A DNA stretch of 64,000 nucleotides from a virus. The translations under genes and the position numbers were made by a program. Of the stretch, positions 3,259 through 35,009 are shown piece by piece. The stretch covers positions 1-64,000 of the IMG/VR virus record IMGVR_UViG_3300027747_003046, one strand, 5' to 3'. The notes beneath the pieces are model-generated. The model worked only from the letters and a program-made list of their open reading frames with translations, was not told the origin of the DNA and did no database searches. Each line of letters begins with the position of its first letter. Within the stretch, counting starts at the first letter, position 1.

Positions 3259-3451
3259 AAAGAATAAGAAAACAAAGAACCCAAAGGTAGGTTCACTTGT
3301 ATATGATAAGGATCATAAAGATTGGGGAATTATTGTTAAAGTAGAAAAAGACAGTGATGTAATACAGTATACAATTCAGTTTGTTGGTGATCGTGAAGCT
3401 ATTGTCTTATCGGACATTCACGATAGCAAATATCAAGAGTGTTACGAATAA
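3251..3451 (+). CDS. small SH3/KOW-like paralog
   Basis: KVGSLVYDKDHKDWGIIV; GTG start behind GAGG. Confidence 0.7.
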   Translation: MTRKNKKTKNPKVGSLVYDKDHKDWGIIVKVEKDSDVIQYTIQFVGDREAIVLSDIHDSKYQECYE

Positions 3452-3466
3452 GTTATAGTGTATGAT

Positions 3467-3581
3467 GATCTGCGTAGTGATCTGTCTAGATCACACTACA
3501 ACAAAAGAATCCTGCGTAGTTTCGTGGGGTTAGCGCTGCAGATCGAAAGGCCTTGACGGTTCGTCGGGTCCGTGTTAAGAT
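3467..3581 (+). promoter_or_regulatory. composite early promoter 1 (phased GATC + IHF-like site + TTGACG-N17-TAAGAT)
   Basis: GATC at 3467/3479/3489, core TTTCGTGGGGTTA 3520-3532, -35 at 3553. Confidence 0.8.
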
Positions 3582-3644
3582 TGTTAGGCGCCGCGAGCAA
3601 TCCCGCTCGCGGGCCTCGGTGTCCGTTTTGTCCGGAGTGTTCCT

Positions 3645-4724
3645 ATGTCGTTCGGTATGTCTATTGACTTCGCTACTTTCAACCGTATTGTTTCGGCCGT
3701 TGTTGCTGAATCGAAACCTATTCTTATCCGTGGTCGTCACGGTATTGGTAAGTCCGAGCTTGTGTATCAGATCGCTCGTGATCTCGGGCTTCCCGTTGTT
3801 GAACGTCGTGCCTCGCAGATGACGGAAGGTGATCTTGTTGGTCTGCCTTCGATCAATGGCAATCGCACGTCTTTCAATCCTCCGGATTGGTTTAAGGAAG
3901 CTTGCGAACGTCCCGTTGCTCTGTTTCTCGACGAGGTTGATCGTGCGACCGTCGAGGTTCGTCAGGGTATCTTTGAACTTACCGATTCGCGTAAGTTGAA
4001 TGGTCACGTGCTTCATCCGGGCACTCGTATCTTTGCCGCTGTTAATGGTGGCAAGCATGGCCAGCAGTATCAGGTTGGTGAGATGGATCCTGCCGAGTTG
4101 GATCGTTGGTCTGTCTTTGACGTTGAACCCACGGTTGAAGATTGGCTTTCGTGGGCAAAGGACAATGTCCATGGTATGATCTGGGACTTTATCAATAATC
4201 ACCGCAATCATCTGGAACATACTGGCGAGTTTGAACCGAATAAGAAGTATCCTTCGCGTCGTTCGTGGAAGCGTTGTAATGATGTTCTCGTTCGTGCGGA
4301 TGCTCTGCGCGAAGATTTCAATAAGGATTCGATTCCGCTTGCTGCTGCTTTTGTCGGTTATGAAGCCGCAATCGAACTGGGTTCTTTCGTCCAGAACTAC
4401 AAGCGCGTCGTGACCCCCGATCAGATTATTGTTGAGGGCAAGGTTAACCTGACGGAGAAGTTTACTCTTAATGAGCATGTCCAGTTGATTGAAAAGATGG
4501 AAGCCAATAAGTGTTTCCATAATCTTCTGTCTCCGGAGCATATGAACAACGTTGCTACTTACTTCCTTACGCTTCCCAGCGAAGCCGCGATGAAGTTGTG
4601 GAAGATCATCGGTAAGCCACCCGCTCCCAAGGATAACACGATTGTCCTTCACAAGACGGTTATCAATGGTGTGAAGGTTGGTGATCACGTTACGAAGCTG
4701 CTGTCCGGTGAAAAGAAGAAGTGA
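3645..4724 (+). CDS. MoxR/dynein-related AAA+ ATPase
   Basis: Walker A GRHGIGKS, Walker B LFLDEVDR, DPAELDRW, PSRRSW. Confidence 0.92.
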   Translation: MSFGMSIDFATFNRIVSAVVAESKPILIRGRHGIGKSELVYQIARDLGLPVVERRASQMTEGDLVGLPSINGNRTSFNPPDWFKEACERPVALFLDEVDRATVEVRQGIFELTDSRKLNGHVLHPGTRIFAAVNGGKHGQQYQVGEMDPAELDRWSVFDVEPTVEDWLSWAKDNVHGMIWDFINNHRNHLEHTGEFEPNKKYPSRRSWKRCNDVLVRADALREDFNKDSIPLAAAFVGYEAAIELGSFVQNYKRVVTPDQIIVEGKVNLTEKFTLNEHVQLIEKMEANKCFHNLLSPEHMNNVATYFLTLPSEAAMKLWKIIGKPPAPKDNTIVLHKTVINGVKVGDHVTKLLSGEKKK

Positions 4725-4751
4725 GCAGCTTCCACAAATGAATAATGTATA

Positions 4752-4781
4752 GCCCCCGCAAGGGGGCTTCTCCCTTTCTTC
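4752..4781 (+). terminator. intrinsic terminator
   Basis: gccccc-gcaa-gggggc GNRA hairpin plus pyrimidine tail. Confidence 0.7.
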
Positions 4782-4785
4782 TAAC

Positions 4786-4814
4786 TTGACAACAACGAGA
4801 TCAGATGGTATAGT
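4786..4814 (+). promoter_or_regulatory. sigma70 promoter TTGACA-N17-TATAGT
   Basis: near-consensus, TGn extended -10. Confidence 0.8.
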
Positions 4815-4822
4815 TGTGAAAT

Positions 4823-5353
4823 ATGTCTAAAAAGAAACTACTTAACATTATGGCCCGTAAAACTTCCAATAAGCCAAAGGCTAAAAATGTTTGGCAATCA
4901 AACATTAATAAGATTGAGGAATGGCTTACTGGAAAAGGTTATCGTTTAATCAAGGGCAAAGAAAAGCACGTCGTGGATAGTGTAGACTTTGAGACTAAAA
5001 TTGTTTTCCTTGGCACCAGATCCACAGAGGAAAATCAGTTTTACAGTATCCTGCACGAGTGCGGACATATTGTTAACAGAACAAAAGATAGTTTCGCTAA
5101 AAAGTATAAAGTCCTAAAAGAATCCGAAACAGATCCAAAGAAGCAAAAGTCTATTCGATATCTTGTTGAAGAAATCGAAGAAGAAACAGAAGCTTGGAGA
5201 AACGGAGAAGTATTAGCAAATAAATTAAATATTCAGCTTGATACTGAAAAATATTACACATACGCTTCTAAATTTCTAATGGGATATATTGTAATGGCTG
5301 GTGAGGGCAAACAGTATGTTCTTGGAAGGCCAAGGGGCGAAAAGAATAAATAA
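4823..5353 (+). CDS. HExxH zinc metallopeptidase-like protein (ImmA/IrrE-like)
   Basis: ILHECGH followed by EEETEAW. Confidence 0.7.
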   Translation: MSKKKLLNIMARKTSNKPKAKNVWQSNINKIEEWLTGKGYRLIKGKEKHVVDSVDFETKIVFLGTRSTEENQFYSILHECGHIVNRTKDSFAKKYKVLKESETDPKKQKSIRYLVEEIEEETEAWRNGEVLANKLNIQLDTEKYYTYASKFLMGYIVMAGEGKQYVLGRPRGEKNK

Positions 5354-5373
5354 GCTAGTAATTCGTTTCTCTC

Positions 5374-5402
5374 TTGACGCCTCGCCCGATCCGTGTTAGG
5401 AT
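5374..5402 (+). promoter_or_regulatory. sigma70 early promoter TTGACG-N17-TAGGAT
   Basis: 17-bp spacer, GATC in spacer, inverted repeat around -10. Confidence 0.8.
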
Positions 5403-5455
5403 CGGGGTGTCCCGTTGTGTCCGCTGTCAGATCACCCTATAAAAAGGTCACGTCT

Positions 5456-6757
5456 ATGTCGTTCGATCTCAATATGGCTATGTTTCGTCTCTTGAAGAAG
5501 GAACCTTTCTTTGCAGCTATCTCGCGTTGCATTAGCAAGGTTGCAAGCAACGCCGTTCCCACGGCTGGTGTTCGTGTTAATCCTGACACGGGCTACTTTG
5601 AGATGATGTATAATCCAGACTTCTTTGACACTCTTGGAAATGGTGACGCTAATCGCCAAGAAGTCGAGATTCTTGGTGTATTGAAGCACGAGTTTTATCA
5701 TCTTCTTTTCGAGCATGTCACCGGACGTTTGCCCGAAGAAGGTATGAATCGAAACTGGAATATCGCCACCGATCTGGCTATCAATAGCCATATCGCTGAT
5801 GAACTTCCTGCTTTTGCGCTTGTTCCCGGCAAGTCGTATACTGACCCAAAGACGGGTCAGGTTCATGATATGTTCAAGGATATGGAATCCGGCTTGTCTG
5901 CCGAAGAATACTATATCCTCGTGAAGCAGAAGCAAGAGGAAAACAAGCAAAAGAATAAGGATAAGGGAGAAGGTCAAGGAGAAGGTGAAGGTGAAGGCGG
6001 TGGTGGTTCACCGTCTAATGGCGATGGTATGCCTGATTCCATGGATGATCATAGTGGATGGGCAACGGAAGGAACCGAAAACGTTGATAGTGTTACTCGG
6101 CAGATTGCGGCAGAACGTTTGAAAGAAGCGATGCAGGATGCCGTTGAAGAAGTTGTAAAGGAGGGTCGTGGTTGGGGTTCTGTTTCTCACCAGATGCAGA
6201 AGCAGATCATGGATTCTTTGAAGTCGCAGGTTGATTGGAAGTCTGTTCTGCGTTATTTCGTAAAGACTTCGCAAGCGGCGAACCGTTCTAACTCCATGAA
6301 GAAGATCAATCGCCGTTATCCGTATATCCATCCCGGTCGCAAGACTTCCCGCACGGCTCGTATTGCAATCTCGATTGATCAATCTGGCTCTGTTCACGAT
6401 GGTATGCTTGCTGCGTTCTTTGCTGAACTGAATAAGCTGGCAGAGATTGCTAGCTTTACTGTTGTTCCGTTCGATGATGCGGTGTTTGAAGATAAGGTCT
6501 ATGAATGGAAGAAGGGAACGAAGCACAAGCGTGAACGTGTTTTGTGTGGTGGCACTAACTTTGACGCCCCTACCAACTACGTGAACGACAATAACTTCGA
6601 TGGCCATATTATTTTGACTGATTTGTATGCTCCCAAGCCAAAGAACAGCAAGTGCCAACGTATGTGGATGACGACTGAATCTTGTGCTCGTTCACCATAC
6701 TTCCAAACGAATGAACGAATCATCGCGATTCCCGATAAGGATTGTGCCGATGAATGA
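5456..6757 (+). CDS. VWA-domain / putative metallopeptidase (DUF2201-like), partner of the MoxR ATPase
   Basis: HEFYH, NIATDLAIN, GE-rich linker, MIDAS DQSGS, GGTNF, ILTD; start moved to ATG 5456. Confidence 0.9.
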   Translation: MSFDLNMAMFRLLKKEPFFAAISRCISKVASNAVPTAGVRVNPDTGYFEMMYNPDFFDTLGNGDANRQEVEILGVLKHEFYHLLFEHVTGRLPEEGMNRNWNIATDLAINSHIADELPAFALVPGKSYTDPKTGQVHDMFKDMESGLSAEEYYILVKQKQEENKQKNKDKGEGQGEGEGEGGGGSPSNGDGMPDSMDDHSGWATEGTENVDSVTRQIAAERLKEAMQDAVEEVVKEGRGWGSVSHQMQKQIMDSLKSQVDWKSVLRYFVKTSQAANRSNSMKKINRRYPYIHPGRKTSRTARIAISIDQSGSVHDGMLAAFFAELNKLAEIASFTVVPFDDAVFEDKVYEWKKGTKHKRERVLCGGTNFDAPTNYVNDNNFDGHIILTDLYAPKPKNSKCQRMWMTTESCARSPYFQTNERIIAIPDKDCADE

Positions 6758-6769
6758 ATGAATAAATAA

Positions 6770-6803
6770 TAAGGTAGGGTGGTCGATTGACTACCCTGCC
6801 TTA
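6770..6803 (+). terminator. hairpin/terminator
   Basis: aaggtagggtggtc-gatt-gactaccctgcctt. Confidence 0.6.
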
Positions 6804-6812
6804 TACTTATTT

Positions 6813-7106
6813 ATGATGCCAAAAACTCATTCAAGACATATGAAAACCTCATTCCAAAGAGGCGATCTTGTTGAGTATATTGGTATTGATAAGTTGAATC
6901 GTGGTGTTGGAGTTGTTCTAGAAGAAGTGCCTTATGATGGATTCTATGACGAAGACTCGGAAGACAATATTCTTTCTTGTGTAAGAATTTATTGGCAGGG
7001 TCTTGGTAGAGAAGAAACTTTACACAAAGCAAGAGTTCGTCGTATTGCGGAAGTTACAAAATTAAGAACAAAGAAAATCAACAAAGATGGCGCGGGAACA
7101 GAATAG
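6813..7106 (+). CDS. SH3/KOW-like paralog
   Basis: FQRGDLVEY..GVGVVLE..RIYW. Confidence 0.7.
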   Translation: MMPKTHSRHMKTSFQRGDLVEYIGIDKLNRGVGVVLEEVPYDGFYDEDSEDNILSCVRIYWQGLGREETLHKARVRRIAEVTKLRTKKINKDGAGTE

Positions 7107-7353
7107 AAAGAATACTAAAAAGCCGCTTCGTCGTGGTAATGTTTTTTCTAAAAAAACTCAACCATTCTTTATTGGCGATCTTGTTGATCTAAACCATACA
7201 CACCACCACCATTCTTTGCGAGATAAGATGGGCGTTGTTCTCGACGTAGAAAACAAAGAAGGTGAATGGTTTTTAAAGATTCAGTTTCAAGACGGAACAG
7301 AAGTAATCACCTATTTTGCGTATGTTCGACTTTTGGTCGGCATCGACGATTAA
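7087..7353 (+). CDS. SH3/KOW-like paralog
   Basis: FFIGDLVD..KMGVVLDV..KIQF. Confidence 0.7.
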   Translation: MAREQNRKNTKKPLRRGNVFSKKTQPFFIGDLVDLNHTHHHHSLRDKMGVVLDVENKEGEWFLKIQFQDGTEVITYFAYVRLLVGIDD

Positions 7354-7398
7354 AGGGGTTAGAGATTTCGCGCCAAAATTTTTCCATTTCAGCTTTAT

Positions 7399-7671
7399 AT
7401 GACAACAAAAACATTCCTTATTTGTTATGAATTAGACCAGTTACCAACCGGTTTAAAAAAGTGGCACTATGTTCGCGAGAAACAGCGAATCATTTTACAT
7501 GTTTCAGCCAGAATTTATAAACAGATGAAGGCTATAAAAGAAGAAAGAAAAGGTGATTTAAAATATCGTGACCGTCTTGTTACAGATATTTTAAATGATG
7601 GTGCCCCAAGATGGTGGCCGGCAGAACTTGTATGGGAAATCGTTAATCGTGGTACAACTATGAACGATTAG
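7399..7671 (+). CDS. hypothetical protein (possible 'DLLxG' family member)
   Basis: 90-aa ORF, QRIILH..TDILND. Confidence 0.65.
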   Translation: MTTKTFLICYELDQLPTGLKKWHYVREKQRIILHVSARIYKQMKAIKEERKGDLKYRDRLVTDILNDGAPRWWPAELVWEIVNRGTTMND

Positions 7672-7683
7672 GTAGGAACAGGT

Positions 7684-7947
7684 ATGGATAAAACTTATAT
7701 TACAGGTCAGTATAAAGTGTTTATGACAGATGTTGTAGACAAATATGGTATGGCACGTCGTAGGGTATTGAAAATCCCAACTAATCTTTATGCTTACTTT
7801 GATAGTGTAAAGGCTTTTCCAGAAGGTAACGATGGCACCTTGACGGTTCATAAGATCGAGGATCTAGCTATCGAGGAATACATCGATCTAACATCGGCAG
7901 AACTCCTAAAACTAATCACGATCGGAACACCCGTTCAATATGAATGA
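7684..7947 (+). CDS. hypothetical protein
   Basis: 87-aa ORF, AGGA RBS. Confidence 0.65.
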   Translation: MDKTYITGQYKVFMTDVVDKYGMARRRVLKIPTNLYAYFDSVKAFPEGNDGTLTVHKIEDLAIEEYIDLTSAELLKLITIGTPVQYE

Positions 7948-8152
7948 TGAACCAAAAAACTATAAGATCATTTTGTATGATCACCTTGATACAAGATACC
8001 TTATTCGTATAAGTGATGTAGAGATCAATAGAACCGTTATGGGATCTTTTGATCGTATCCTTGTTTATGATATGTTGGACGGTAAAGAAAAGGCTTTGGC
8101 TCACGTTCTTGCCTATACAATCATCAGCAGAGGCGAAGTATTGGATGGCTAA
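7940..8152 (+). CDS. small 'DLLxG' family paralog
   Basis: IILYD..RYLIRI..YDMLDG. Confidence 0.7.
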   Translation: MNDEPKNYKIILYDHLDTRYLIRISDVEINRTVMGSFDRILVYDMLDGKEKALAHVLAYTIISRGEVLDG

Positions 8153-8354
8153 AAAGCAATCGTTCCATGTTTATTTGTGGGATAATGAAGAAGGTGCTCG
8201 CTTTATTGTCCAGATGAGCGAAGAAGTAAGAAAGTCCATCCTTGATGGTATGGTAGGACGTTACTTGTGTGCTAATCTGTTGGATGGTGTTGAGCATTAC
8301 TACGATCATCGCTTTATCCACAAAATAATCAAGCGAGGGTTTAAGATTATATGA
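8145..8354 (+). CDS. small 'DLLxG' family paralog
   Basis: VYLWD..RFIVQM..ANLLDG; start moved to ATG 8145. Confidence 0.7.
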   Translation: MAKKQSFHVYLWDNEEGARFIVQMSEEVRKSILDGMVGRYLCANLLDGVEHYYDHRFIHKIIKRGFKII

Positions 8355-8578
8355 TTCTTTTGGTTGACGGCACCGATGAACGCATTATGATCCTTATCAC
8401 GGATGAAGATAGGGAAAGAGTAGGTCGCGCAAAGGCAGGCGATAAGCCTTGGATTTATCTACCAAACATGATTCAAGGCAAGTCTCGTTTGTGTGCTTTG
8501 GATATGGTTTATCCAGGAATTTTTGAAGGTAAGAAAGAATACAGTTGGAATGAACTTACTGTAAACGTATTGGACTAA
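8351..8578 (+). CDS. small 'DLLxG' family paralog
   Basis: MILLVD..RIMILI..NMIQG. Confidence 0.65.
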   Translation: MILLVDGTDERIMILITDEDRERVGRAKAGDKPWIYLPNMIQGKSRLCALDMVYPGIFEGKKEYSWNELTVNVLD

Positions 8579-8603
8579 CACGATCTGCGGTAGAATAAAC
8601 TTT

Positions 8604-8849
8604 ATGTTAATCCTGTATGAGTTTCCAATTTTAAATAAAAATCGTGGTAGAGTCATTTTCCATATAACGAGTTCTCTCATTAACGAGCTCAACTATGAAA
8701 TATCTAGCATGTATACAAAGAGTGTTTTTTATGTTGAAGATTTGCTAACAGGTGAACTGCGAGGATTATATACTGCGGATTTATATGAATTGATGACAAC
8801 AGAAGAACAATACATCCAGCTTGATAAGCACCACTTCTATATACTATAA
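8604..8849 (+). CDS. small 'DLLxG' family paralog
   Basis: MLILYE..RVIFHI..EDLLTG. Confidence 0.7.
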   Translation: MLILYEFPILNKNRGRVIFHITSSLINELNYEISSMYTKSVFYVEDLLTGELRGLYTADLYELMTTEEQYIQLDKHHFYIL

Positions 8850-8906
8850 GACAAACTCTAATACTAGCTTCGCTATATAATCCTGCCGAGATATAAAGAA
8901 AACAAT

Positions 8907-9113
8907 ATGTATCTACTTTTGGAAGGCTATACTGCCACAGCAGGTGTGTTGCTAATGAGCAAAGGCAATAGGGTAATCCTATATAATCCAAACAAGAGGG
9001 AAAGACTCTTAAAGGATGTTGTAAGCCAATATACCGATCTGCTATCCGGTAAGATGGTTCATATTCGAAACATGGAACTGTTGGCTTTTATTCAAGATGG
9101 CTACGAGTTCTAA
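8907..9113 (+). CDS. small 'DLLxG' family paralog
   Basis: MYLLLEG..RVILYNP..TDLLSG. Confidence 0.75.
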   Translation: MYLLLEGYTATAGVLLMSKGNRVILYNPNKRERLLKDVVSQYTDLLSGKMVHIRNMELLAFIQDGYEF

Positions 9114-9145
9114 ACCGTATTCTATCGAGGACAAGAGAAAAGACT

Positions 9146-9361
9146 ATGCTATTGTTGGTAGAAGGATGCCGCATCACAATAGATGCCAGGTTAAGATATA
9201 CAAAAGACAGCAGAATGATTCTACATCTTCCAGAGACTCTTGAAGAGATCAAAAAGTATAAAAGTATCACCTACTTTGTTGTTGATCTATTGACAGATAG
9301 AGGTATATATATTAACAGGAATGATCTAAAAGACTTCCTTGCCAAAGGCATCCAACTATAA
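9146..9361 (+). CDS. small 'DLLxG' family paralog
   Basis: MLLLVEG..RMILHLP..VDLLTD. Confidence 0.75.
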   Translation: MLLLVEGCRITIDARLRYTKDSRMILHLPETLEEIKKYKSITYFVVDLLTDRGIYINRNDLKDFLAKGIQL

Positions 9362-9392
9362 GCCTTTCTCCCCGAGGTTATAAGAATATAAT

Positions 9393-9608
9393 ATGTATAT
9401 TATACTAGATGACTATGAAGTAACAGTCTGTCGCCTATGTCATACATACACACCAAACAAAAGAGTTATCCTATACAGTCCAGAGAAAGAGATAGACCCA
9501 GTAAATAGAAAACCCTATATCCAAATGATTGATCTACTATCAGGTAAGAACGTTATTATATCACAACCCGAAATAGATAATTTATTGGTGAATGGTGTCC
9601 TATTATAG
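9393..9608 (+). CDS. small 'DLLxG' family paralog
   Basis: MYIILDD..RVILYSP..IDLLSG. Confidence 0.75.
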   Translation: MYIILDDYEVTVCRLCHTYTPNKRVILYSPEKEIDPVNRKPYIQMIDLLSGKNVIISQPEIDNLLVNGVLL

Positions 9609-9611
9609 GTC

Positions 9612-9780
9612 TATAAAAAGAACCAGCAAAGAGTTCTTTTGTCCCAGTAAACTTGTGTATAGATTGAAGTAATTTAATTACCCTATACTAAACGTAGCAA
9701 GTGGTAAGTAACTAATAAGCTGTAGGGGAGCGACCATCGGGAGCGATTTAATACGCTACCACAAGATAGATCAAGTAAAA
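9612..9780 (-). ncRNA. candidate small RNA on the minus strand
   Basis: lies between a consensus minus-strand promoter and a bidirectional hairpin/U-tract; only a 19-codon ORF without RBS. Confidence 0.4.
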
Positions 9781-9785
9781 TAATT

Positions 9786-9814
9786 AGTATACCACTTTGA
9801 AAAAAGCTTGTCAA
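9786..9814 (-). promoter_or_regulatory. minus-strand sigma70 promoter TTGACA-N17-TATACT
   Basis: reverse complement reads TTGACAagcttttttcaaagTGgTATACT. Confidence 0.75.
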
Positions 9815-9907
9815 GTCTTAAAAAAAGTGAAAAAAAGTGATATAGGGCCTGGCAGATCAGTTACAGTTGGTGAACGGCTGTATACAAGCCCTATACCTTA
9901 CACGGAA

Positions 9908-10041
9908 TCATGCTGACATATGGCAAGATCGGTATAAACTGGCTGTTTAAAATGCGTTTCGCATTGTGAAGCCATTTTAACCGTTACAGCCATTTTTCTC
10001 TTTATAGAGTTCATGCTGACATATGGTGAGATCGGTATAAA
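9908..10041. repeat. 31-bp direct repeat pair flanking a long hairpin
   Basis: tcatgctgacatatggYRagatcggtataaa at 9908-9938 and 10011-10041 (2 mismatches). Confidence 0.85.
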
Positions 10042-10155
10042 TGATCTCTCCGGATCATAGCAGATCATATACAGAATAAGAAAACCGGCACAAGATCAAG
10101 GGGTTAGGGCCGCAGAAGAGAAGGGCTTGACGTTTGGCCGGACGTGTGGCATAAT
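10030..10155 (+). promoter_or_regulatory. composite early promoter 2
   Basis: GATC at 10030/10043/10053/10063, core GATCAAGGGGTTA 10094-10106, TTGACG 10127, CATAAT 10150. Confidence 0.8.
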
Positions 10156-10225
10156 GGGGGTGTGCCCGGTTCGGCACACGGTGCCTGTCCGCTGCGGGCT
10201 TGCTAGATAGTGAAAAGGTGATTCT

Positions 10226-10612
10226 ATGTCGCTTTCGATTGATACTGCGTCTACTTCGTCCCCCGTTGCTCCTGCGCTCCTTCGTACGGTTGGTGAGGGT
10301 GAGACGATCACGGTAAAGGATATTCTGGATCTTGCTGGTGTCAGCAAGGTTACACTGTTGAAGATGATTGAATCTGCGGGTATTGTGCCTGTTGGTAAGG
10401 TTGTCTCCGGTGGTCGTGGTCGTCCTGCTTTTCTCTTTGATCGTGCGGATGTTCAGCGTATGCTTGATGCACGTCAGGCTTCGAAGCTGGCAAAGGATAA
10501 CAAGCCTGTTGCGGTGGCACCGGTGAATGATACTGCGGATGCGGTCGCAGAGCCGGATGATGATAATGTTGATCCGGATCTGGCTGCTGCTCTTGCTGCA
10601 CAGCAGGAATGA
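10226..10612 (+). CDS. putative HTH DNA-binding protein with acidic tail
   Basis: TVKDILDLAGVSKVTLLKMI helix-turn-helix, wing motif GGRGRPAFLF. Confidence 0.7.
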   Translation: MSLSIDTASTSSPVAPALLRTVGEGETITVKDILDLAGVSKVTLLKMIESAGIVPVGKVVSGGRGRPAFLFDRADVQRMLDARQASKLAKDNKPVAVAPVNDTADAVAEPDDDNVDPDLAAALAAQQE

Positions 10613-10675
10613 ACTTGGCACACAAAACCGAATACTAAACAAAGGCTTATGGTTGTGCTATAAACAACCAAGTAT

Positions 10676-10749
10676 TGGGGAATCGTCTAACGGCAGGACT
10701 GTGGATTTTGATTCCACCTATTGGGGTTCGAATCCCTATTCCCCAACCA
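10676..10749 (+). tRNA. trnQ: tRNA-Gln(TTG)
   Basis: acceptor TGGGGAA/TTCCCCA, anticodon loop TT-TTG-AT, TTCGAAT, CCA. Confidence 0.93.
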
Positions 10750-10791
10750 TTAACAAGAATTGTATATTGTGATATACAATTCTTGTTCTCT

Positions 10792-10866
10792 GGCACTATC
10801 GTCTAGCGGTTAGGACAGAAGCCTTTCAAGTTTCTTGCAAGAGTTCGAATCTCTTTAGTGTCACCA
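10792..10866 (+). tRNA. trnE: tRNA-Glu(TTC)
   Basis: acceptor GGCACTA/TAGTGTC, loop CT-TTC-AA, CCA. Confidence 0.93.
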
Positions 10867-10904
10867 AAAGCACAGTTTCCGGAGCTGTTTAAAACCGGAT
10901 TTAT

Positions 10905-10981
10905 TGGCCAATAGCTCAGTTGGTAGTAGCGCATGACTGTTAATCATGAAGTCGTAGGTTCGACCCCTACTTGGCCAGCCA
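10905..10981 (+). tRNA. trnN: tRNA-Asn(GTT)
   Basis: acceptor TGGCCAA/TTGGCCA, loop CT-GTT-AA, CCA. Confidence 0.93.
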
Positions 10982-10986
10982 ATAAA

Positions 10987-11018
10987 AGCCGGACACCTTG
11001 TGTGTCCGGTTCTTTTTT
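10987..11018 (+). terminator. intrinsic terminator after tRNA trio
   Basis: gccggacac-cttgt-gtgtccggt plus T-tract. Confidence 0.75.
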
Positions 11019-11035
11019 AAAGGAAAGGGAATCTA

Positions 11036-11224
11036 TTGTTTAATACAAAGACCGACACTTTCAAGACTGCCCTTCACTATATTGAAATGTATGCGAATCC
11101 AATTCGCATGGCAATGATGGATCTTGAGAGTGGAGAAATTAAAGATGTAAATGTTGTTTCTCTTATCTCTCAGCTAATGGTTGATGAAGCCAGCCACAAA
11201 CTTGATCATGAGGTATCTTTCTGA
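11036..11224 (+). CDS. hypothetical protein
   Basis: 62-aa ORF with purine-rich RBS. Confidence 0.55.
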   Translation: MFNTKTDTFKTALHYIEMYANPIRMAMMDLESGEIKDVNVVSLISQLMVDEASHKLDHEVSF

Positions 11225-11511
11225 TGCGTATTATCACTCGTGATTGTATTCAGGCATTGATGGATGGTCGTGATATCACCGTTGACAATACAAGGGTTCG
11301 TGGTGATACCCTTTTCCTGCACGGTAATCCGATCATTCAAGTTCGTGATGATGGTGTATACATTCAAACTGGTGGATGGAATACACCTACCACAAAGGAA
11401 CGTTTGAATGGCTTGCCAAATGTAAGGGTTTATACCCACAAAAGGCAGCTTCATTTGAATAATACACCGTGGGATGGAAACTGGATTCGTGTTGATACGG
11501 ATCTTCGATGA
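11224..11511 (+). CDS. conserved phage hypothetical protein
   Basis: LHGNPI..GGWNTPTTKERLN motif typical of phage early proteins. Confidence 0.75.
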   Translation: MRIITRDCIQALMDGRDITVDNTRVRGDTLFLHGNPIIQVRDDGVYIQTGGWNTPTTKERLNGLPNVRVYTHKRQLHLNNTPWDGNWIRVDTDLR

Positions 11512-11596
11512 TTGTTTTCTTAATTATCACTTTTTGTCTCTCGGCTATGTTTCCACTGTTTCTTCAAAATGTGTTCCAAAATTGGGAGTGAGCTAT

Positions 11597-11800
11597 ATGG
11601 AAATGACTCTTGAACAGTTGACGATTCTTACACCTGCTCTTCGTTTGATCAGTGGGTTTGAAATGGCTGCATATCGTGAGGCATTGCTCCAATCTTTGGA
11701 AGGTGTTAATATGCTTACAGAAGAAAGCAAGATTATTGCCCATGAATACGACAAGACCCTTGAATTCTATTCTATGAGTTTCAAGCCAGAGATCCAGTAG
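11597..11800 (+). CDS. hypothetical protein
   Basis: start moved to ATG 11597 behind GGAG. Confidence 0.6.
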   Translation: MEMTLEQLTILTPALRLISGFEMAAYREALLQSLEGVNMLTEESKIIAHEYDKTLEFYSMSFKPEIQ

Positions 11801-11892
11801 AGATCACGTATAATTTAAAAAACCGATGACATTCTGCGGGGTTACGTGCCCCGCTCTTTGCCCTTGACGTTCCCGCAGATCGGTGCTACAAT
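11791..11892 (+). promoter_or_regulatory. composite early promoter 3
   Basis: GATC at 11791/11802, core TTCTGCGGGGTTA 11832-11844, TTGACG 11864, TACAAT 11887. Confidence 0.8.
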
Positions 11893-11898
11893 AGGCGC

Positions 11899-12120
11899 AT
11901 GCAAACCCGATCCGCTTCCGCTCGTGCCTTTTCGATCATTATGATGCGCGGTGTTAAAAAGGATAATGTTATTCGTTTTGCCCTTTCGTTGAATGATAAA
12001 GAAACCGAAGAAGCAACGGACACTTTTCACCGTCAAGGGCCGCGTTTGTGGGGTTTCTGGTGTAAAGCAATGGATGAACGAAAGAAGAACAATATGATTG
12101 TTCCTGCCGTTTTCCGCTGA
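11899..12120 (+). CDS. hypothetical protein (probably leaderless mRNA)
   Basis: ATG 6 nt after the -10 box. Confidence 0.65.
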   Translation: MQTRSASARAFSIIMMRGVKKDNVIRFALSLNDKETEEATDTFHRQGPRLWGFWCKAMDERKKNNMIVPAVFR

Positions 12121-12146
12121 ACTGCTATCATATAACAGAAAGGATT

Positions 12147-12464
12147 GTGAATATGGCTAAGGTTATCATTTCTCCCGGTTTTGGTGGTGGTTTCCGTGGT
12201 AACGTAAAGCACCGTTTTGATCCCGAGCTCATTCGTATCATTGAAGAAAAGGAAAACCTCGTTCCAGGAGAACGTGGAAACCCTGAAAAGCGCAAGGCAC
12301 TCGATGCACAGTTAAAGCTGCGCCTGCACGTGCTGGATATTCAATGTGATCCGTCAAAGCTTGCGGTTATTGAATTGGCTTCTGGTAAGCGTTTCAAGAT
12401 CGAAGAATATGATGGCTCAGAATATATCATCACGGAAGATGATCTGAATATGGTTGCACCCTGA
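12147..12464 (+). CDS. conserved phage hypothetical protein
   Basis: ISPGFGGGF..RFDPELI..FKIEEYDGSEYI. Confidence 0.75.
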   Translation: MNMAKVIISPGFGGGFRGNVKHRFDPELIRIIEEKENLVPGERGNPEKRKALDAQLKLRLHVLDIQCDPSKLAVIELASGKRFKIEEYDGSEYIITEDDLNMVAP

Positions 12465-12484
12465 ACTCTGCGAGGATTAAACAT

Positions 12485-12649
12485 ATGGAATATCTCTATC
12501 TGCAAGATGGTTTCTATGATGGTAAAGATCCAAAGGAGATTCAGCGTTTCCTGGATACAGTTGAAAACGGTGGATACAAGCCAACAAAGGGTGATAGTGT
12601 GACAGTGGTTGCCTTGTCACCTTTGAATGACGACGAGCTCCCTTGTTAG
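12485..12649 (+). CDS. small hypothetical protein (54 aa, absent from ORF track)
   Basis: GAGG RBS, MEYLYLQDGFYDGKDPKEIQRF... Confidence 0.6.
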   Translation: MEYLYLQDGFYDGKDPKEIQRFLDTVENGGYKPTKGDSVTVVALSPLNDDELPC

Positions 12650-12663
12650 GGAGCTTTCTTTTT
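12635..12663 (+). terminator. intrinsic terminator
   Basis: gagctccct-tgtt-agggagctt plus T-tract. Confidence 0.75.
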
Positions 12664-12669
12664 ATCTGT

Positions 12670-12782
12670 GATCTGTCCTAGAGATCACGAGAGATCACAT
12701 ACACCGAAAGAAAGCACCGTGTTTTCAAGGGGTTAGCGGCGCACGTTTCTCCTCTTGACATTCCCGCCCGATCCGGTATAAT
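12670..12782 (+). promoter_or_regulatory. composite early promoter 4
   Basis: GATC at 12670/12683/12693, core TTTCAAGGGGTTA 12723-12735, TTGACA 12755, TATAAT 12777. Confidence 0.85.
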
Positions 12783-12826
12783 GGGCGGGGATTCGCTTCC
12801 TGCTAACCCGTTCCACGGATCACTGT

Positions 12827-13234
12827 ATGATGAATGTCAATGATGCGATGACTGTCCTTGCTACCCTCACGCACGGTGAGATCGGCGCTCTTTCTGATAA
12901 CGATCTGCGCGCTTTGCAGGATGCTGCCAAGTATATCACGCAATCGACCGTGACGCACCTTGCCAAGCGTAAAGCGGAAGCGGAAGATCGCGAGCGTCAT
13001 AACCGTAACCTTGCAAAGCGTGCGGAACAAACCGCAAACAATACAAAGTGTGCGAGTGTGCAAGACATTCCAGAGTATAAACAGCTCGTCATGCTTGCCA
13101 ACCTTCTTGCATACAGCCGCAAGAAGAATGACGGCAATAGTGTCAAGCTGGAAAGCAAGATCGAAGCGATCTTGGAAGTGTACGGTATGAACGACAAGCG
13201 TGTTATGGCTCACCTTGTCAACCTTGCTAGCTGA
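12827..13234 (+). CDS. early helical hypothetical protein
   Basis: 135-aa ORF downstream of a consensus promoter. Confidence 0.75.
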   Translation: MMNVNDAMTVLATLTHGEIGALSDNDLRALQDAAKYITQSTVTHLAKRKAEAEDRERHNRNLAKRAEQTANNTKCASVQDIPEYKQLVMLANLLAYSRKKNDGNSVKLESKIEAILEVYGMNDKRVMAHLVNLAS

Positions 13235-13289
13235 TAACCTTTTCACCCTATACTGTAAACCTTCCCGAGAACAAGAGAGAAAAGATATA

Positions 13290-13532
13290 ATGAATACCGT
13301 GAACAAGCCCAAGCTTCCTAACTATTTCCTCAAGTCGCGCCCCCATCACCTTGACAATAAAGTTGTCACTTGGTTCAACCTTGATCGTGTAAAGGTTGGT
13401 CGTTCGGTTGACTTCAACCGTACACAACACCATGGCACCGTTGCCCTTGTTTCACCGTGTGGTGAGATTGCCTTGGTTCGTCAAGCTGATCGTATGGTTG
13501 AAGTGGAAGTGTGCGAGCTTACCACGCTTTGA
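13290..13532 (+). CDS. SH3-like hypothetical protein
   Basis: VKVGRSVDF..GTVALV; start moved to ATG 13290. Confidence 0.65.
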   Translation: MNTVNKPKLPNYFLKSRPHHLDNKVVTWFNLDRVKVGRSVDFNRTQHHGTVALVSPCGEIALVRQADRMVEVEVCELTTL

Positions 13533-13565
13533 AACGTTTCAGTTAGAACGTTCGAATCCTACACT

Positions 13566-13600
13566 AACCCACCTTCATGGTGGGTTTTTTGTTTTCTTTT
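13566..13600 (+). terminator. intrinsic terminator
   Basis: aacccacc-ttcat-ggtgggtt plus long T-tract. Confidence 0.8.
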
Positions 13601-13658
13601 TAAACCGTTCACCACGAGTTCATTTGGTGTATGGTAGAACATCGAAGAGTTCCAGGGA

Positions 13659-13785
13659 GATCACGTATATGATCTGGTAGAGATCAGGGGGAGATCACAG
13701 ATAAGAATAAAAAACCCTCACAGTTTCGCGGACTTGGCACGACACGCACAAAGGGCTTGCGCTTTTCTTAGGACCGTGCTACAAT
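13659..13785 (+). promoter_or_regulatory. composite early promoter 5
   Basis: GATC at 13659/13671/13682/13693, core TTTCGCGGACTTG 13724-13736, TTGCGC 13757, TACAAT 13780. Confidence 0.75.
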
Positions 13786-13862
13786 GTGCAGGCGCCGGAC
13801 GGGTTGCGGTTCCCACGGTGCGATTCACTAGCTAACCGCTTGTCTGCTGAGGGGTCAACAAT

Positions 13863-14261
13863 ATGTCGAACGTCAACAACACCGCCCGCAAGTCGATTGT
13901 CCGCGCTCAGGACGTTGCGCTTTCTTTCCTTATGGGTGGCATCGGTGCCGTGCAAAAGCTGCACACTGATAAGGGCTTCACGGCATCGACGCTTGATAGC
14001 GCAATCGACACGATGAACGAGGGTGGGCAGGACACTGCGTCGCTTGTTACGCTGCGCGATCAGCTGTTTGTTAAGTCGACGGGTTCGCGTGGTCGTAAGG
14101 CTGCGTCGATTGGCGATGCCCGTCATTACAGTGTGCAGGAAGTCGGCGAAACGGGTGCGTTTGTTCGTCTGCCCGTTGGCCTGCTCGGGCTTGTTAAGGG
14201 TGACGAAGTTCGCGTCACGTTCCTCGACGGTCGTATTGTTGTTGAGTCTGCTGCTAGCTGA
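13863..14261 (+). CDS. protein with C-terminal AbrB/MazE/SpoVT-like domain
   Basis: FVRLPVGLLGLVKGDEVRVTFLDGRIVV fits the swapped-hairpin pattern; GAGG RBS. Confidence 0.65.
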   Translation: MSNVNNTARKSIVRAQDVALSFLMGGIGAVQKLHTDKGFTASTLDSAIDTMNEGGQDTASLVTLRDQLFVKSTGSRGRKAASIGDARHYSVQEVGETGAFVRLPVGLLGLVKGDEVRVTFLDGRIVVESAAS

Positions 14262-14309
14262 ACCAGCAGACAACCAACATAGCCGGTACCGGCCAGCAAT
14301 AGCAAACCA

Positions 14310-14334
14310 GCCCCGCGACAAGCGGGGTTTTTTT
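14310..14334 (+). terminator. intrinsic terminator ending the early region
   Basis: ccccgc-gacaa-gcgggg plus T7. Confidence 0.8.
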
Positions 14335-14384
14335 ATATGCGAGAACATAAGAAGACATAAAGAATAAACATATAAAAAACACAT

Positions 14385-14550
14385 ACCCCTCCCCCCTCCC
14401 CCTGTATACCGGAATCTAACTACCATAGCCATATAGTGTATAGTTGGCGCCATAATACACGCTTGAAATACCGGCCAAATTTTTGGAATTTTTTTTAACA
14501 AGGTGCGTTAAGGGGGGTGGCAGAAAAATTCCCGGCCAAAATTTTCCCCA
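14385..14550. other. non-coding junction with C-tracts and repeated CCGGCCAAA(A)TTTT; candidate genome end/packaging site
   Basis: CCCCTCCCCCCTCCCCC, two CCGGCCAAA(A)TTTT copies, and a change in gene class/composition across it. Confidence 0.35.
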
Positions 14551-27462: not shown

Positions 27463-27802
27463 GATCGGATCTTTGTTCAGAAGATCCGATCAGATCACAC
27501 ACTTGTCGTCACAGCCTCTTAACAGATCAAACTGGATCTGATTATAATCGATCTACCAGATCAGATCTTAATAAAAATAAATAAAATCAAATACAAATAA
27601 ATAAAGATCCTATAAAATACTAATATAAGATCTTATAAGAAAGAACTGAATACTATGAGTAGATCTTTTAAAGATATCGGAACAGATATTGGATCTTTGG
27701 TAGAACAGAAAAACAAAGCTTATGGATCTTCTTTTGAAAAAAGTGCTGAGATCATAAAAATTCTTTATCCAGATGGTGTAAAACCAGAACAATATACAGA
27801 TC
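27463..27802. other. GATC cluster plus AT-rich tract (candidate replication origin)
   Basis: 17 GATC in about 340 bp (12 intergenic) flanking an A-rich tract at about 27569-27650. Confidence 0.5.
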
Positions 27803-27930
27803 TTTTAGCTATTACTAGAGTTCTTGATAAATTATTCAGAATTGCTACCAAAAAAGATGCCTTTGGAGAAAGTCCTTGGCAAGACATAGCAGGTTATGCT
27901 ATTTTGGGTATCAGTAAGGATGAAAAATGA
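27655..27930 (+). CDS. DUF1599/nucleotide-modification-associated domain-like protein
   Basis: KNKAYGSSF..DKLFRI..ESPWQDIAGYAIL. Confidence 0.7.
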   Translation: MSRSFKDIGTDIGSLVEQKNKAYGSSFEKSAEIIKILYPDGVKPEQYTDLLAITRVLDKLFRIATKKDAFGESPWQDIAGYAILGISKDEK

Positions 27931-34766: not shown

Positions 34767-35009
34767 ATGATTACAAAAGAGAAAATTCATCAAATTGGTA
34801 GTTTCATCGGTTCACTACCTGATATTGAAGTTACGTTAAAGTATCTTGTGGTTAATTACTTAAAGCTGTTTACTGAAAACGATAAGTTAAAAAACGAAGT
34901 TCTGAACCTTAAGAAAGAAAACAGCGACCTCTTGACAGAAGCTGCGGATCATGCTAGAATGGTGCAGGAGCTTGAAGCGGAACTAGAAGCATTCAAGACG
35001 ATTCATTAA
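34767..35009 (+). CDS. coiled-coil hypothetical protein
   Basis: 80-aa ORF between tRNAs. Confidence 0.6.
   Translation: MITKEKIHQIGSFIGSLPDIEVTLKYLVVNYLKLFTENDKLKNEVLNLKKENSDLLTEAADHARMVQELEAELEAFKTIH

Follow-up and report, generated by a model that had tools for sequence, protein, structure and literature searches.

Phased AGATCA arrays and IHF-like sites upstream of putative early promoters in a large freshwater phage

The first 64 kb of a 78.4-kb viral contig in IMG/VR (record IMGVR_UViG_3300027747_003046, positions 1 to 64,000; completeness rating of the contig, 39%) contain five copies of a composite promoter module of ~140 bp each, labelled U1 to U5 (Table 1). This 64,000-nucleotide stretch is referred to below as the window. 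In each unit, an array of GATC-containing hexamers spaced about one helical turn apart is followed by an A-tract, a 13-nucleotide core that resembles a binding site for integration host factor (IHF), and a sigma70-type promoter. The phage is large and tailed, has ~36% GC, and encodes 12 tRNAs as well as a baseplate wedge protein like that of T4. No related match was found among named phages at the DNA level, and the nearest cultured relatives by baseplate protein, which are ~30% identical, infect Microcystis and Flavobacterium. The sequencing runs that contain the sequence are freshwater metagenomes, none of them RNA, and an Rfam search of positions 3300-14500 found tRNAs only.

Architecture of the five units

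The five units were noticed in an original prediction made from the sequence alone, in which every coordinate, motif, and distance proved correct, including the 13-nucleotide cores. Within an array, the GATC sites lie 10-13 bp apart, and the last copy reads AGATCAC in U1, U3, U4, and U5, and AGATCAT in U2. The last GATC lies 41, 41, 40, 40, and 41 bp before the TTR of the core in U1 to U5, respectively, and the TTR lies 23, 23, 22, 22, and 23 bp before the -35 hexamer. The proximal hexamer is thereby found at a fixed 62-64 bp from the -35 hexamer. The spacing between motifs is conserved, as had been claimed, but the intervening sequence is not wholly unrelated, because the A-tract, the C-rich step that follows it, and a G preceding the -35 hexamer are conserved too.

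A pattern built from spacing only (GATCA-N35-36-TTR-N19-20-TTGMS) matches the window five times, always on the plus strand. The expectation from 100 dinucleotide shuffles is 0.15 +/- 0.39 matches, and none of the shuffles reached five.

Each unit includes near-consensus -35 and -10 hexamers separated by 16-17 bp, in agreement with the predicted sigma70-type promoters. A TG upstream of the -10 hexamer is present in U1, U2, U3, and U5, and the promoters thus have the form of sigma70-type promoters with an extended -10 element (hexamers 16-18 bp apart, TG). A sigma70 scan lists four of the five, with 9-12 of 12 hexamer positions matched and TG in three of those four. The U5 promoter matches at 8 of 12 positions and falls under the scan threshold (its -35 hexamer is TTGCGC), and its orthologue on the metagenome contig L048, described below, has TTGACG. 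Upstream of U4 and U5, Rho-independent terminators end at 12 bp and 71 bp, respectively, from the first array hexamer, which indicates that the units open separate transcription units in a region of small early genes that all lie on the plus strand. No array is present at other strong promoters (1639, 4786, 5374, 17156, 31498, 34636, and 34932), so the module singles out a subset of the early genes.

Table 1. Features of the five units in the window. Genes named with a promoter are those that the predicted promoter would drive.
Unit	Feature	Position	Strand	Details
U1	Array, 3 AGATCA/TGATCT hexamers (inverted, inverted, forward)	3466-3494	+	GATC at 3467, 3479, 3489
U1	A-rich tract (3498-3509) and IHF-like core (3520-3532)	3498-3532	+	Core TTTCGTGGGGTTA
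U1	Promoter, TTGACG-17-TAAGAT with TG	3553-3581	+	Predicted start ~3588; MoxR-like AAA ATPase gene, 3645-4724
U2	Array, 4 GATC sites	10029-10068	+	GATC at 10030, 10043, 10053, 10063
U2	A-tract and IHF-like core (10094-10106)	10075-10106	+	Core GATCAAGGGGTTA
U2	Promoter, TTGACG-17-CATAAT with TG	10127-10155	+	Gene 10226-10612 and three tRNAs, 10676-10981
U2	Gene for 128-amino-acid winged-helix protein (HTH_17, MerR/Xis/BldC-like)	10226-10612	+	Candidate array reader
U3	Array, 2 forward hexamers	11790-11807	+	GATC at 11791, 11802; first hexamer overlaps end of upstream open reading frame (ORF)
U3	A-tract and weakest core (11832-11844)	11812-11844	+	Core TTCTGCGGGGTTA
U3	Promoter, TTGACG-17-TACAAT with TG	11864-11892	+	ORF 11899-12120
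U4	Array, 3 hexamers (inverted, forward, forward)	12669-12698	+	GATC at 12670, 12683, 12693; terminator 12635-12656 directly upstream
U4	A-tract and core (12723-12735)	12705-12735	+	Core TTTCAAGGGGTTA, exact match to WWTCARSnnnTTA
U4	Promoter, TTGACA-16-TATAAT, 12/12	12755-12782	+	ORF 12827-13234
U5	Array, 4 hexamers (forward, inverted, forward, forward)	13658-13698	+	GATC at 13659, 13671, 13682, 13693; terminator 13566-13586 upstream
U5	A-tract and core (13724-13736)	13706-13736	+	Core TTTCGCGGACTTG
U5	Promoter, TTGCGC-17-TACAAT with TG	13757-13785	+	Gene 13863-14261
U5	Gene for 132-amino-acid protein with RGRK/RGRP motif	13863-14261	+	Possible second DNA binder

Conservation in related phages

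The ATPase encoded downstream of U1 was used as a query and led to nine related viral contigs. The closest of these, G001, is complete (187,750 bp) and encodes an ATPase that is 79% identical. Searched with the spacing pattern, G001 yields exactly five units, which share one strand, and the control gives no matches. Four of them precede orthologues of the genes that follow U1, U2, U4, and U5 (79, 48, 42, and 58% protein identity, respectively), and the fifth precedes a short leaderless ORF like that of U3. An eleventh unit is found on L048, a contig of 1.3 kb, before an orthologue of the U5 gene (74%), and represents a third copy of the U5 unit. When the eleven units (five from the window, five from G001, and one from L048) were aligned with one-base gaps allowed, information peaked at AGATCAC, at the A-tract and a subsequent CC, at TtTC..Gg..TTA, at CTTGAC, and at GTGnTAnAATG, and was about zero elsewhere.

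The module appears to be restricted to a small group of phages. Relatives whose ATPase is 55-63% identical have no array, and their promoters are plain, with A-rich, UP-like upstream regions. A strict form of the module pattern was scanned in IMG/VR, in JGI and NCBI metagenomes, and in 185,579 reference genomes. Matches in IMG/VR other than those in G001 are chance matches, and among 27 matching metagenome stretches only pieces of G001 and L048 are real. None of the 22 matching stretches in the reference genomes is real, which argues against a general type of host promoter. A scan of viral contigs with an alignment of the U5 protein returned only G001. About 30 further metagenome contigs, some of them 114-201 kb long, encode homologues of the U5 and U2 genes.

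Because four of the G001 units are followed by orthologues of genes that have the module in the window, these comparisons indicate that the module is ancestral to a small phage clade and under selection, having persisted at each locus despite divergence of the proteins to 42-79% identity. Judged from the sequence comparisons, then, the module is a real and conserved regulatory design. In a strain from another study that is ~96% identical to the window phage, four substitutions lie inside U1, all outside the motifs, which weakly supports constraint on this unit. The same strain (run X2) also differs upstream of the U3 core, where 133 bp (11703-11835) are replaced by 134 letters that are less than 80% alike, which hints that U3, the unit with the poorest core, is more labile.

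The IHF-like site and the hexamer array

The IHF consensus is WATCARnnnnTTR, and the in-vivo logo is WWTCARSnnnTTA (PMC8407004). Four of the eleven cores match this logo exactly, and six match with at most one mismatch. The GGGG that predominates in the window cores is not conserved in G001, in which GCAC, CCGG, and GGGT occur instead, whereas TTTCAR and TTA are kept, as the IHF consensus predicts. In all eleven units, an A-tract of 8-12 nucleotides ends 6-10 nucleotides before the core; in the record of the lambda attP H' site, an A6 tract ends 8 nucleotides before TATCAATTTGTTG. The units thus contain both the 13-nucleotide consensus and the A/T-rich 5' arm of an IHF site, and the proposed likeness to IHF sites is strengthened by the G001 cores and by the distance of the A-tract. 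Matches to the logo are not enriched over the whole window (4 versus 5.75 expected), so the argument for IHF rests on position and not on abundance. No gene for HU or IHF was found in either phage, and the bending protein would therefore be the host's.

The tRNA-Leu promoter at 34932 (34880-34960) also has an A-tract and TTCTGAACCTTA located 23 bp before its -35 hexamer, as in the units, with no GATC array. The bending-site part of the module can therefore stand alone.

Alternately, the A-tract and TTTCAR..TTA might be an intrinsic bend or the site of another protein in a host that lacks IHF, such as an actinobacterium or a cyanobacterium, and the array would still be an operator or activating site. 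The hosts of the nearest cultured relatives fit this idea. An ORF of 95 amino acids at 11224-11511 matches the Kyanoviridae Gp96 family (PF23790, E 5e-12) and links the phage to cyanophage-type T4-like phages. Also, TTGACG with a TAGRRT-type -10 hexamer and leaderless mRNAs are common in actinobacteria, and the G at core position 7 shows stronger conservation than the classical IHF consensus demands. However, the in-vivo logo has S (G or C) at that position and is matched exactly by four cores, and the A-tract lies at the distance seen in lambda H'. Shine-Dalgarno sites are used by the genes, an argument against a host among the Bacteroidota. Replacement of IHF by another protein or by an intrinsic bend is possible, but we consider it rather unlikely.

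The array repeat is not simply GATC, as the original prediction had it, but an asymmetric hexamer, AGATCA, that occurs in either orientation. AGATCA or TGATCT is present at 32 of the 36 array GATCs in the eleven units, compared with 21% of the remaining 295 genomic GATCs. The promoter-proximal hexamer is always in the forward orientation, and distal copies are in either one. Arrays contain two to five copies, and the number differs between orthologues. Relative to the proximal copy, the others lie at 10-11, 20-23, 33-35, 44, and 56 bp, apart from a single outlier at 48 bp. A period of 11.2 bp fits best, and 5000 random sets included none that was phased equally well, although these phasing and enrichment statistics overstate independence because the units are related as paralogues and orthologues. 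The turnover of copies with their phase retained is a stronger argument than the phasing statistics. The asymmetry of the hexamer points to a sequence-specific protein rather than to a plain GATC reader or the C-terminal domain of the RNA polymerase alpha subunit (alpha-CTD); the latter, proposed earlier as a reader, is unlikely to recognize an asymmetric hexamer that contains G and C.

Other identities for the repeat were rejected. A binding site for CRP (TGTGA-N6-TCACA) was considered on account of AGATCACA, which we take to resemble a CRP half-site, but the pairs are at least 10 bp apart and not 6, and many are direct repeats. The Streptomyces Gbn motif GATCWT fits only ~7 of the 36 hexamers, as counted by hand.

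A different proposal is that a host SeqA-type protein binds the phased GATCs when they are hemimethylated and sequesters or stimulates the early promoters depending on how far the phage DNA has been replicated and methylated, in which case no phage reader would be needed. SeqA requires at least two GATCs that share a helical face and are separated by one to three turns (PMC5145175), and the array distances of 10-13 and 21-22 bp conform to this. In addition, a Dam-family methyltransferase is encoded in the clade, and GATC is also found in the spacer of many promoters of the window phage. However, neither the flank bias toward AGATCA nor the invariably forward proximal copy would be expected of a protein that reads only GATC. 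Neither phage has a seqA gene, and no such module was found outside the clade in the scans of public genomes, metagenomes, and viral sequences. SeqA is known only from a few gammaproteobacterial orders, to which the host of the phage may not belong. On balance, reading by SeqA seems unlikely.

The period of 11.2 bp is also reminiscent of the low-affinity DnaA sites in the left half of oriC, which have an 11-bp period, sometimes include GATC, and adjoin an IHF site. If the arrays were low-affinity sites for ATP-DnaA, then DnaA oligomers beside the IHF site might tune early transcription. The mixed orientation of the hexamers argues against this possibility. The DnaA box TTWTNCACA, the high-affinity site that would anchor such a low-affinity array, does not occur in or near any unit; the window contains eight, versus 11.6 expected, and the nearest is at 8314. 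DnaA binding is accordingly a very improbable explanation of the arrays.

GATC sites also cluster elsewhere in the window. Positions 27463-27640, continuing into the ORF at 27655-27930, contain a dense cluster of AGATC and GATCT (this half-flank is present in 15 of 16 sites), which is followed by a very AT-rich tract. The cluster is conserved in G001 in sequence and position, with 20 GATCs within the same 480 bp, and might function as an origin or as a sink for a protein that binds GATC. Single copies of GAGATCAC are found at 35-42 and 1691-1698, in two 5' leaders just 5' of start codons. The GGAG or GAG of this sequence may be a ribosome-binding site, and the sequence probably has no link to the arrays.

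A proposed mechanism and its relation to known systems

The reading that we favor, and to which we assign about an even chance, is that the units are strong sigma70-type early promoters with an IHF-bent array that is bound by a sequence-specific and probably methylation-sensitive protein. Each unit would be a composite early promoter read by the host RNA polymerase with its primary sigma factor. The promoter itself comprises TTGAC, a spacer of 16-17 bp, TG, and TAnAAT. The IHF-type site (the A-tract, 6-10 nucleotides, and TTTCARnnnnTTA) lies upstream of ~20 GC-rich bp and would be centered at about -68, and two to five AGATCA hexamers, about one helical turn apart, would extend beyond it from about -97 to -135. 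This geometry assumes that transcription starts 7 nucleotides past the -10 hexamer. IHF or a host equivalent would bend the DNA sharply, and the resulting U-turn at -68 would lay the array beside the region from -35 to +1. A sequence-specific protein bound cooperatively to the hexamers could then touch or trap RNA polymerase. The fixed distance of the proximal hexamer from the -35 hexamer fits a face-of-helix requirement. Of the IHF-looped upstream element originally proposed, the loop is thus retained, because the fixed distances and the helical phasing fit it, but not the reading of plain GATC or by alpha-CTD. Given core promoters that are close to consensus, with extended -10 elements and GC-rich discriminators, repression or a timed shut-off would be no less likely than activation.

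The phage itself most likely encodes the reader. The best candidate is the 128-amino-acid product of the U2 gene, a predicted winged-helix protein of the MerR/Xis/BldC type, and if this protein is the reader, it would exert feedback control over a subset of promoters. Matches to HTH_17 are found in 13 of 19 homologues, and the protein carries an acidic tail and a wing whose GGRGRP is invariant. The best structural matches to a model of the protein are DNA complexes of the MerR-like proteins RacA, BldC, CvkR, and GlnR. In the 132-amino-acid U5 product, possibly a second DNA binder, an RGRK/RGRP motif is conserved and the beta-rich C-terminus is nearly invariant. The protein has no significant fold match, and hints of MazE and S1 are below threshold.

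Methylation-sensitive binding is probable because every hexamer contains GATC and because the clade encodes a Dam-family methyltransferase, and by analogy with P1 pac a methylation-sensitive reader is plausible. The methyltransferase (164 amino acids; PF05869, 96.9 bits) is found in G001, ~21 kb beyond the point at which the window's contig starts. GATC is not avoided in the genome (327 versus 256 expected). A more elaborate possibility is that the arrays act as a methylation clock that restricts part of early transcription to the infecting genome. DNA from the virion would enter the cell with all AGATCA hexamers methylated by the phage Dam-family enzyme, a reader held by the IHF bend would distinguish fully methylated parental DNA from hemimethylated or unmethylated progeny DNA, and the five promoters would switch state upon replication of the genome. 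We regard such a clock as improbable.

Several observations weigh against an IHF-bent array with a phage-encoded reader. Some cores match IHF poorly, with four mismatches in U3 and two to three in U1, U5, and the G001 unit Gc, the sequence is known only from freshwater metagenome runs, and the host may have no IHF. The hexamers occur in mixed orientation, unlike the strict head-to-tail repeats bound by Xis or BldC. The scores for the U2 product are below threshold (Foldseek E 0.02-0.12; HTH_17 under the Pfam cut-off), and the predicted local distance difference test (pLDDT) score of its model is 63. The Dam-family gene is absent from the 78-kb contig, and the enzyme may have a target other than GATC. 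The relatedness of the units, which inflates the statistics given above, counts here as well. Finally, the G001 units Gd and Ge (L018 and L020) are nearly identical over ~70 bp (~3 differences), from the end of the core to ~+10. The arrays and downstream genes of Gd and Ge differ, a pattern suggestive of gene conversion or of a recent copying event in the promoter-proximal half.

This last pair, and the paralogy of the units in general, raise the possibility that the likeness among units reflects common descent of one duplicated promoter cassette, in which GATC repeats have no function of their own. However, orthologues at 42-58% protein identity keep the motifs and their spacing while the intervening bases have diverged. 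Moreover, the number of repeats shifts between two and five, whereas the phasing and the proximal position are fixed within 2 bp. Descent without function is therefore a distinctly improbable account.

The favored reading, that of an IHF-bent array bound by a specific protein, has counterparts in several described systems. In narG of E. coli (NarL-IHF-Fnr), Mu Pe, and lambda pL, an IHF site lies between a sigma70 promoter and a remote upstream element, and the bend brings upstream DNA or protein to RNA polymerase. The window units would share this layout. In contrast to these promoters, their upstream element is a phased array of GATC hexamers at distances fixed within 2 bp, the same module occurs at five promoters of one phage, and the core promoters are already near consensus. 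BldC and lambda Xis are small proteins of the MerR/Xis fold that form cooperative multimers on variable numbers of repeats about one helical turn apart, and Xis binds beside sites for bending proteins. The form of the array matches these systems, and the best structural matches of the U2 product, although sub-threshold, include RacA and BldC in complex with DNA, whereas the window hexamers occur in both orientations. In the OxyR/Dam switches (Mu mom, agn43, and opvAB), methylation of several upstream GATCs controls binding of the regulator. The GATCs in these switches belong to OxyR half-sites near the promoter, where there is no IHF site, and no OxyR-like motif is found in the window units.

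GATC-containing hexamers adjoining an IHF site are also known. At P1 pac, clusters of TGATCA/G hexamers lie by an IHF site, and phage proteins bind them in a Dam-methylation-dependent manner on DNA bent by IHF or HU (PMC10028697). However, P1 pac occurs once, as a packaging-cleavage site within pacA, and its hexamer clusters flank the IHF site, whereas the window units have one cluster on one side, with the hexamer AGATCA, in five intergenic copies at fixed positions relative to promoters, and are not pac-type sites. In E. coli, oriC contains an IHF-binding sequence and low-affinity ATP-DnaA sites (PMC8407004). The left half of oriC resembles the units in having GATC-rich repeats beside an IHF site, and SeqA requires GATCs in phase (PMC8407004, PMC5145175), whereas the units have no DnaA boxes, are found as five promoter-linked copies, and show the AGATCA flank bias, which SeqA would not explain.

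The original prediction had held that no described promoter class is like this one. The combination at early promoters of the host polymerase does appear to be new, but IHF-assisted sigma70 sites are known, as are GATC-hexamer arrays by IHF sites (P1 pac). Thus, the module is best classed as a variant of the upstream regulation that IHF assists at sigma70 promoters, with the GATC-hexamer-plus-IHF arrangement of P1 pac and oriC, represented by three sequences only. Little is known about the timing of early genes in large uncultured phages, and here a complete cis-regulatory design can be read from the sequence, with comparative support and a candidate trans-acting factor. IHF looping and methylation-dependent GATC-hexamer arrays would be combined at host-polymerase early promoters, a setting that has no earlier description. 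If the link to methylation is true, the phage would distinguish parental from progeny genomes at the level of transcription. A methylation clock, if there is one, would define a class of promoters that tie the timing of phage genes to the replication history of the individual DNA molecule.

Further features of the promoters were observed. The ATG of the U3 ORF (11899) is located at the predicted transcription start, 6 nucleotides past the -10 hexamer (window positions 11887-11901), and the ATG is at the same distance in the G001 units Gb and Gc (L012 and L014). The three module-driven genes would therefore have leaderless mRNAs. A second promoter upstream, at a TATAAT that follows AGATCAC, was rejected because it occurs in only three of the eleven units and has no -35 hexamer. 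Many sigma70-type promoters have the form TTGAC, a GC-rich spacer, and GTGnTAnnAT, with a GATC within the spacer beside the extended -10 element. Examples are at 1639-1667, 5374-5402, 11864-11892, 12755-12782, 31498, 34636, and 34932. The start of the contig falls in the middle of another promoter of this type (1-23), and two G001 promoters share the spacer GATC.

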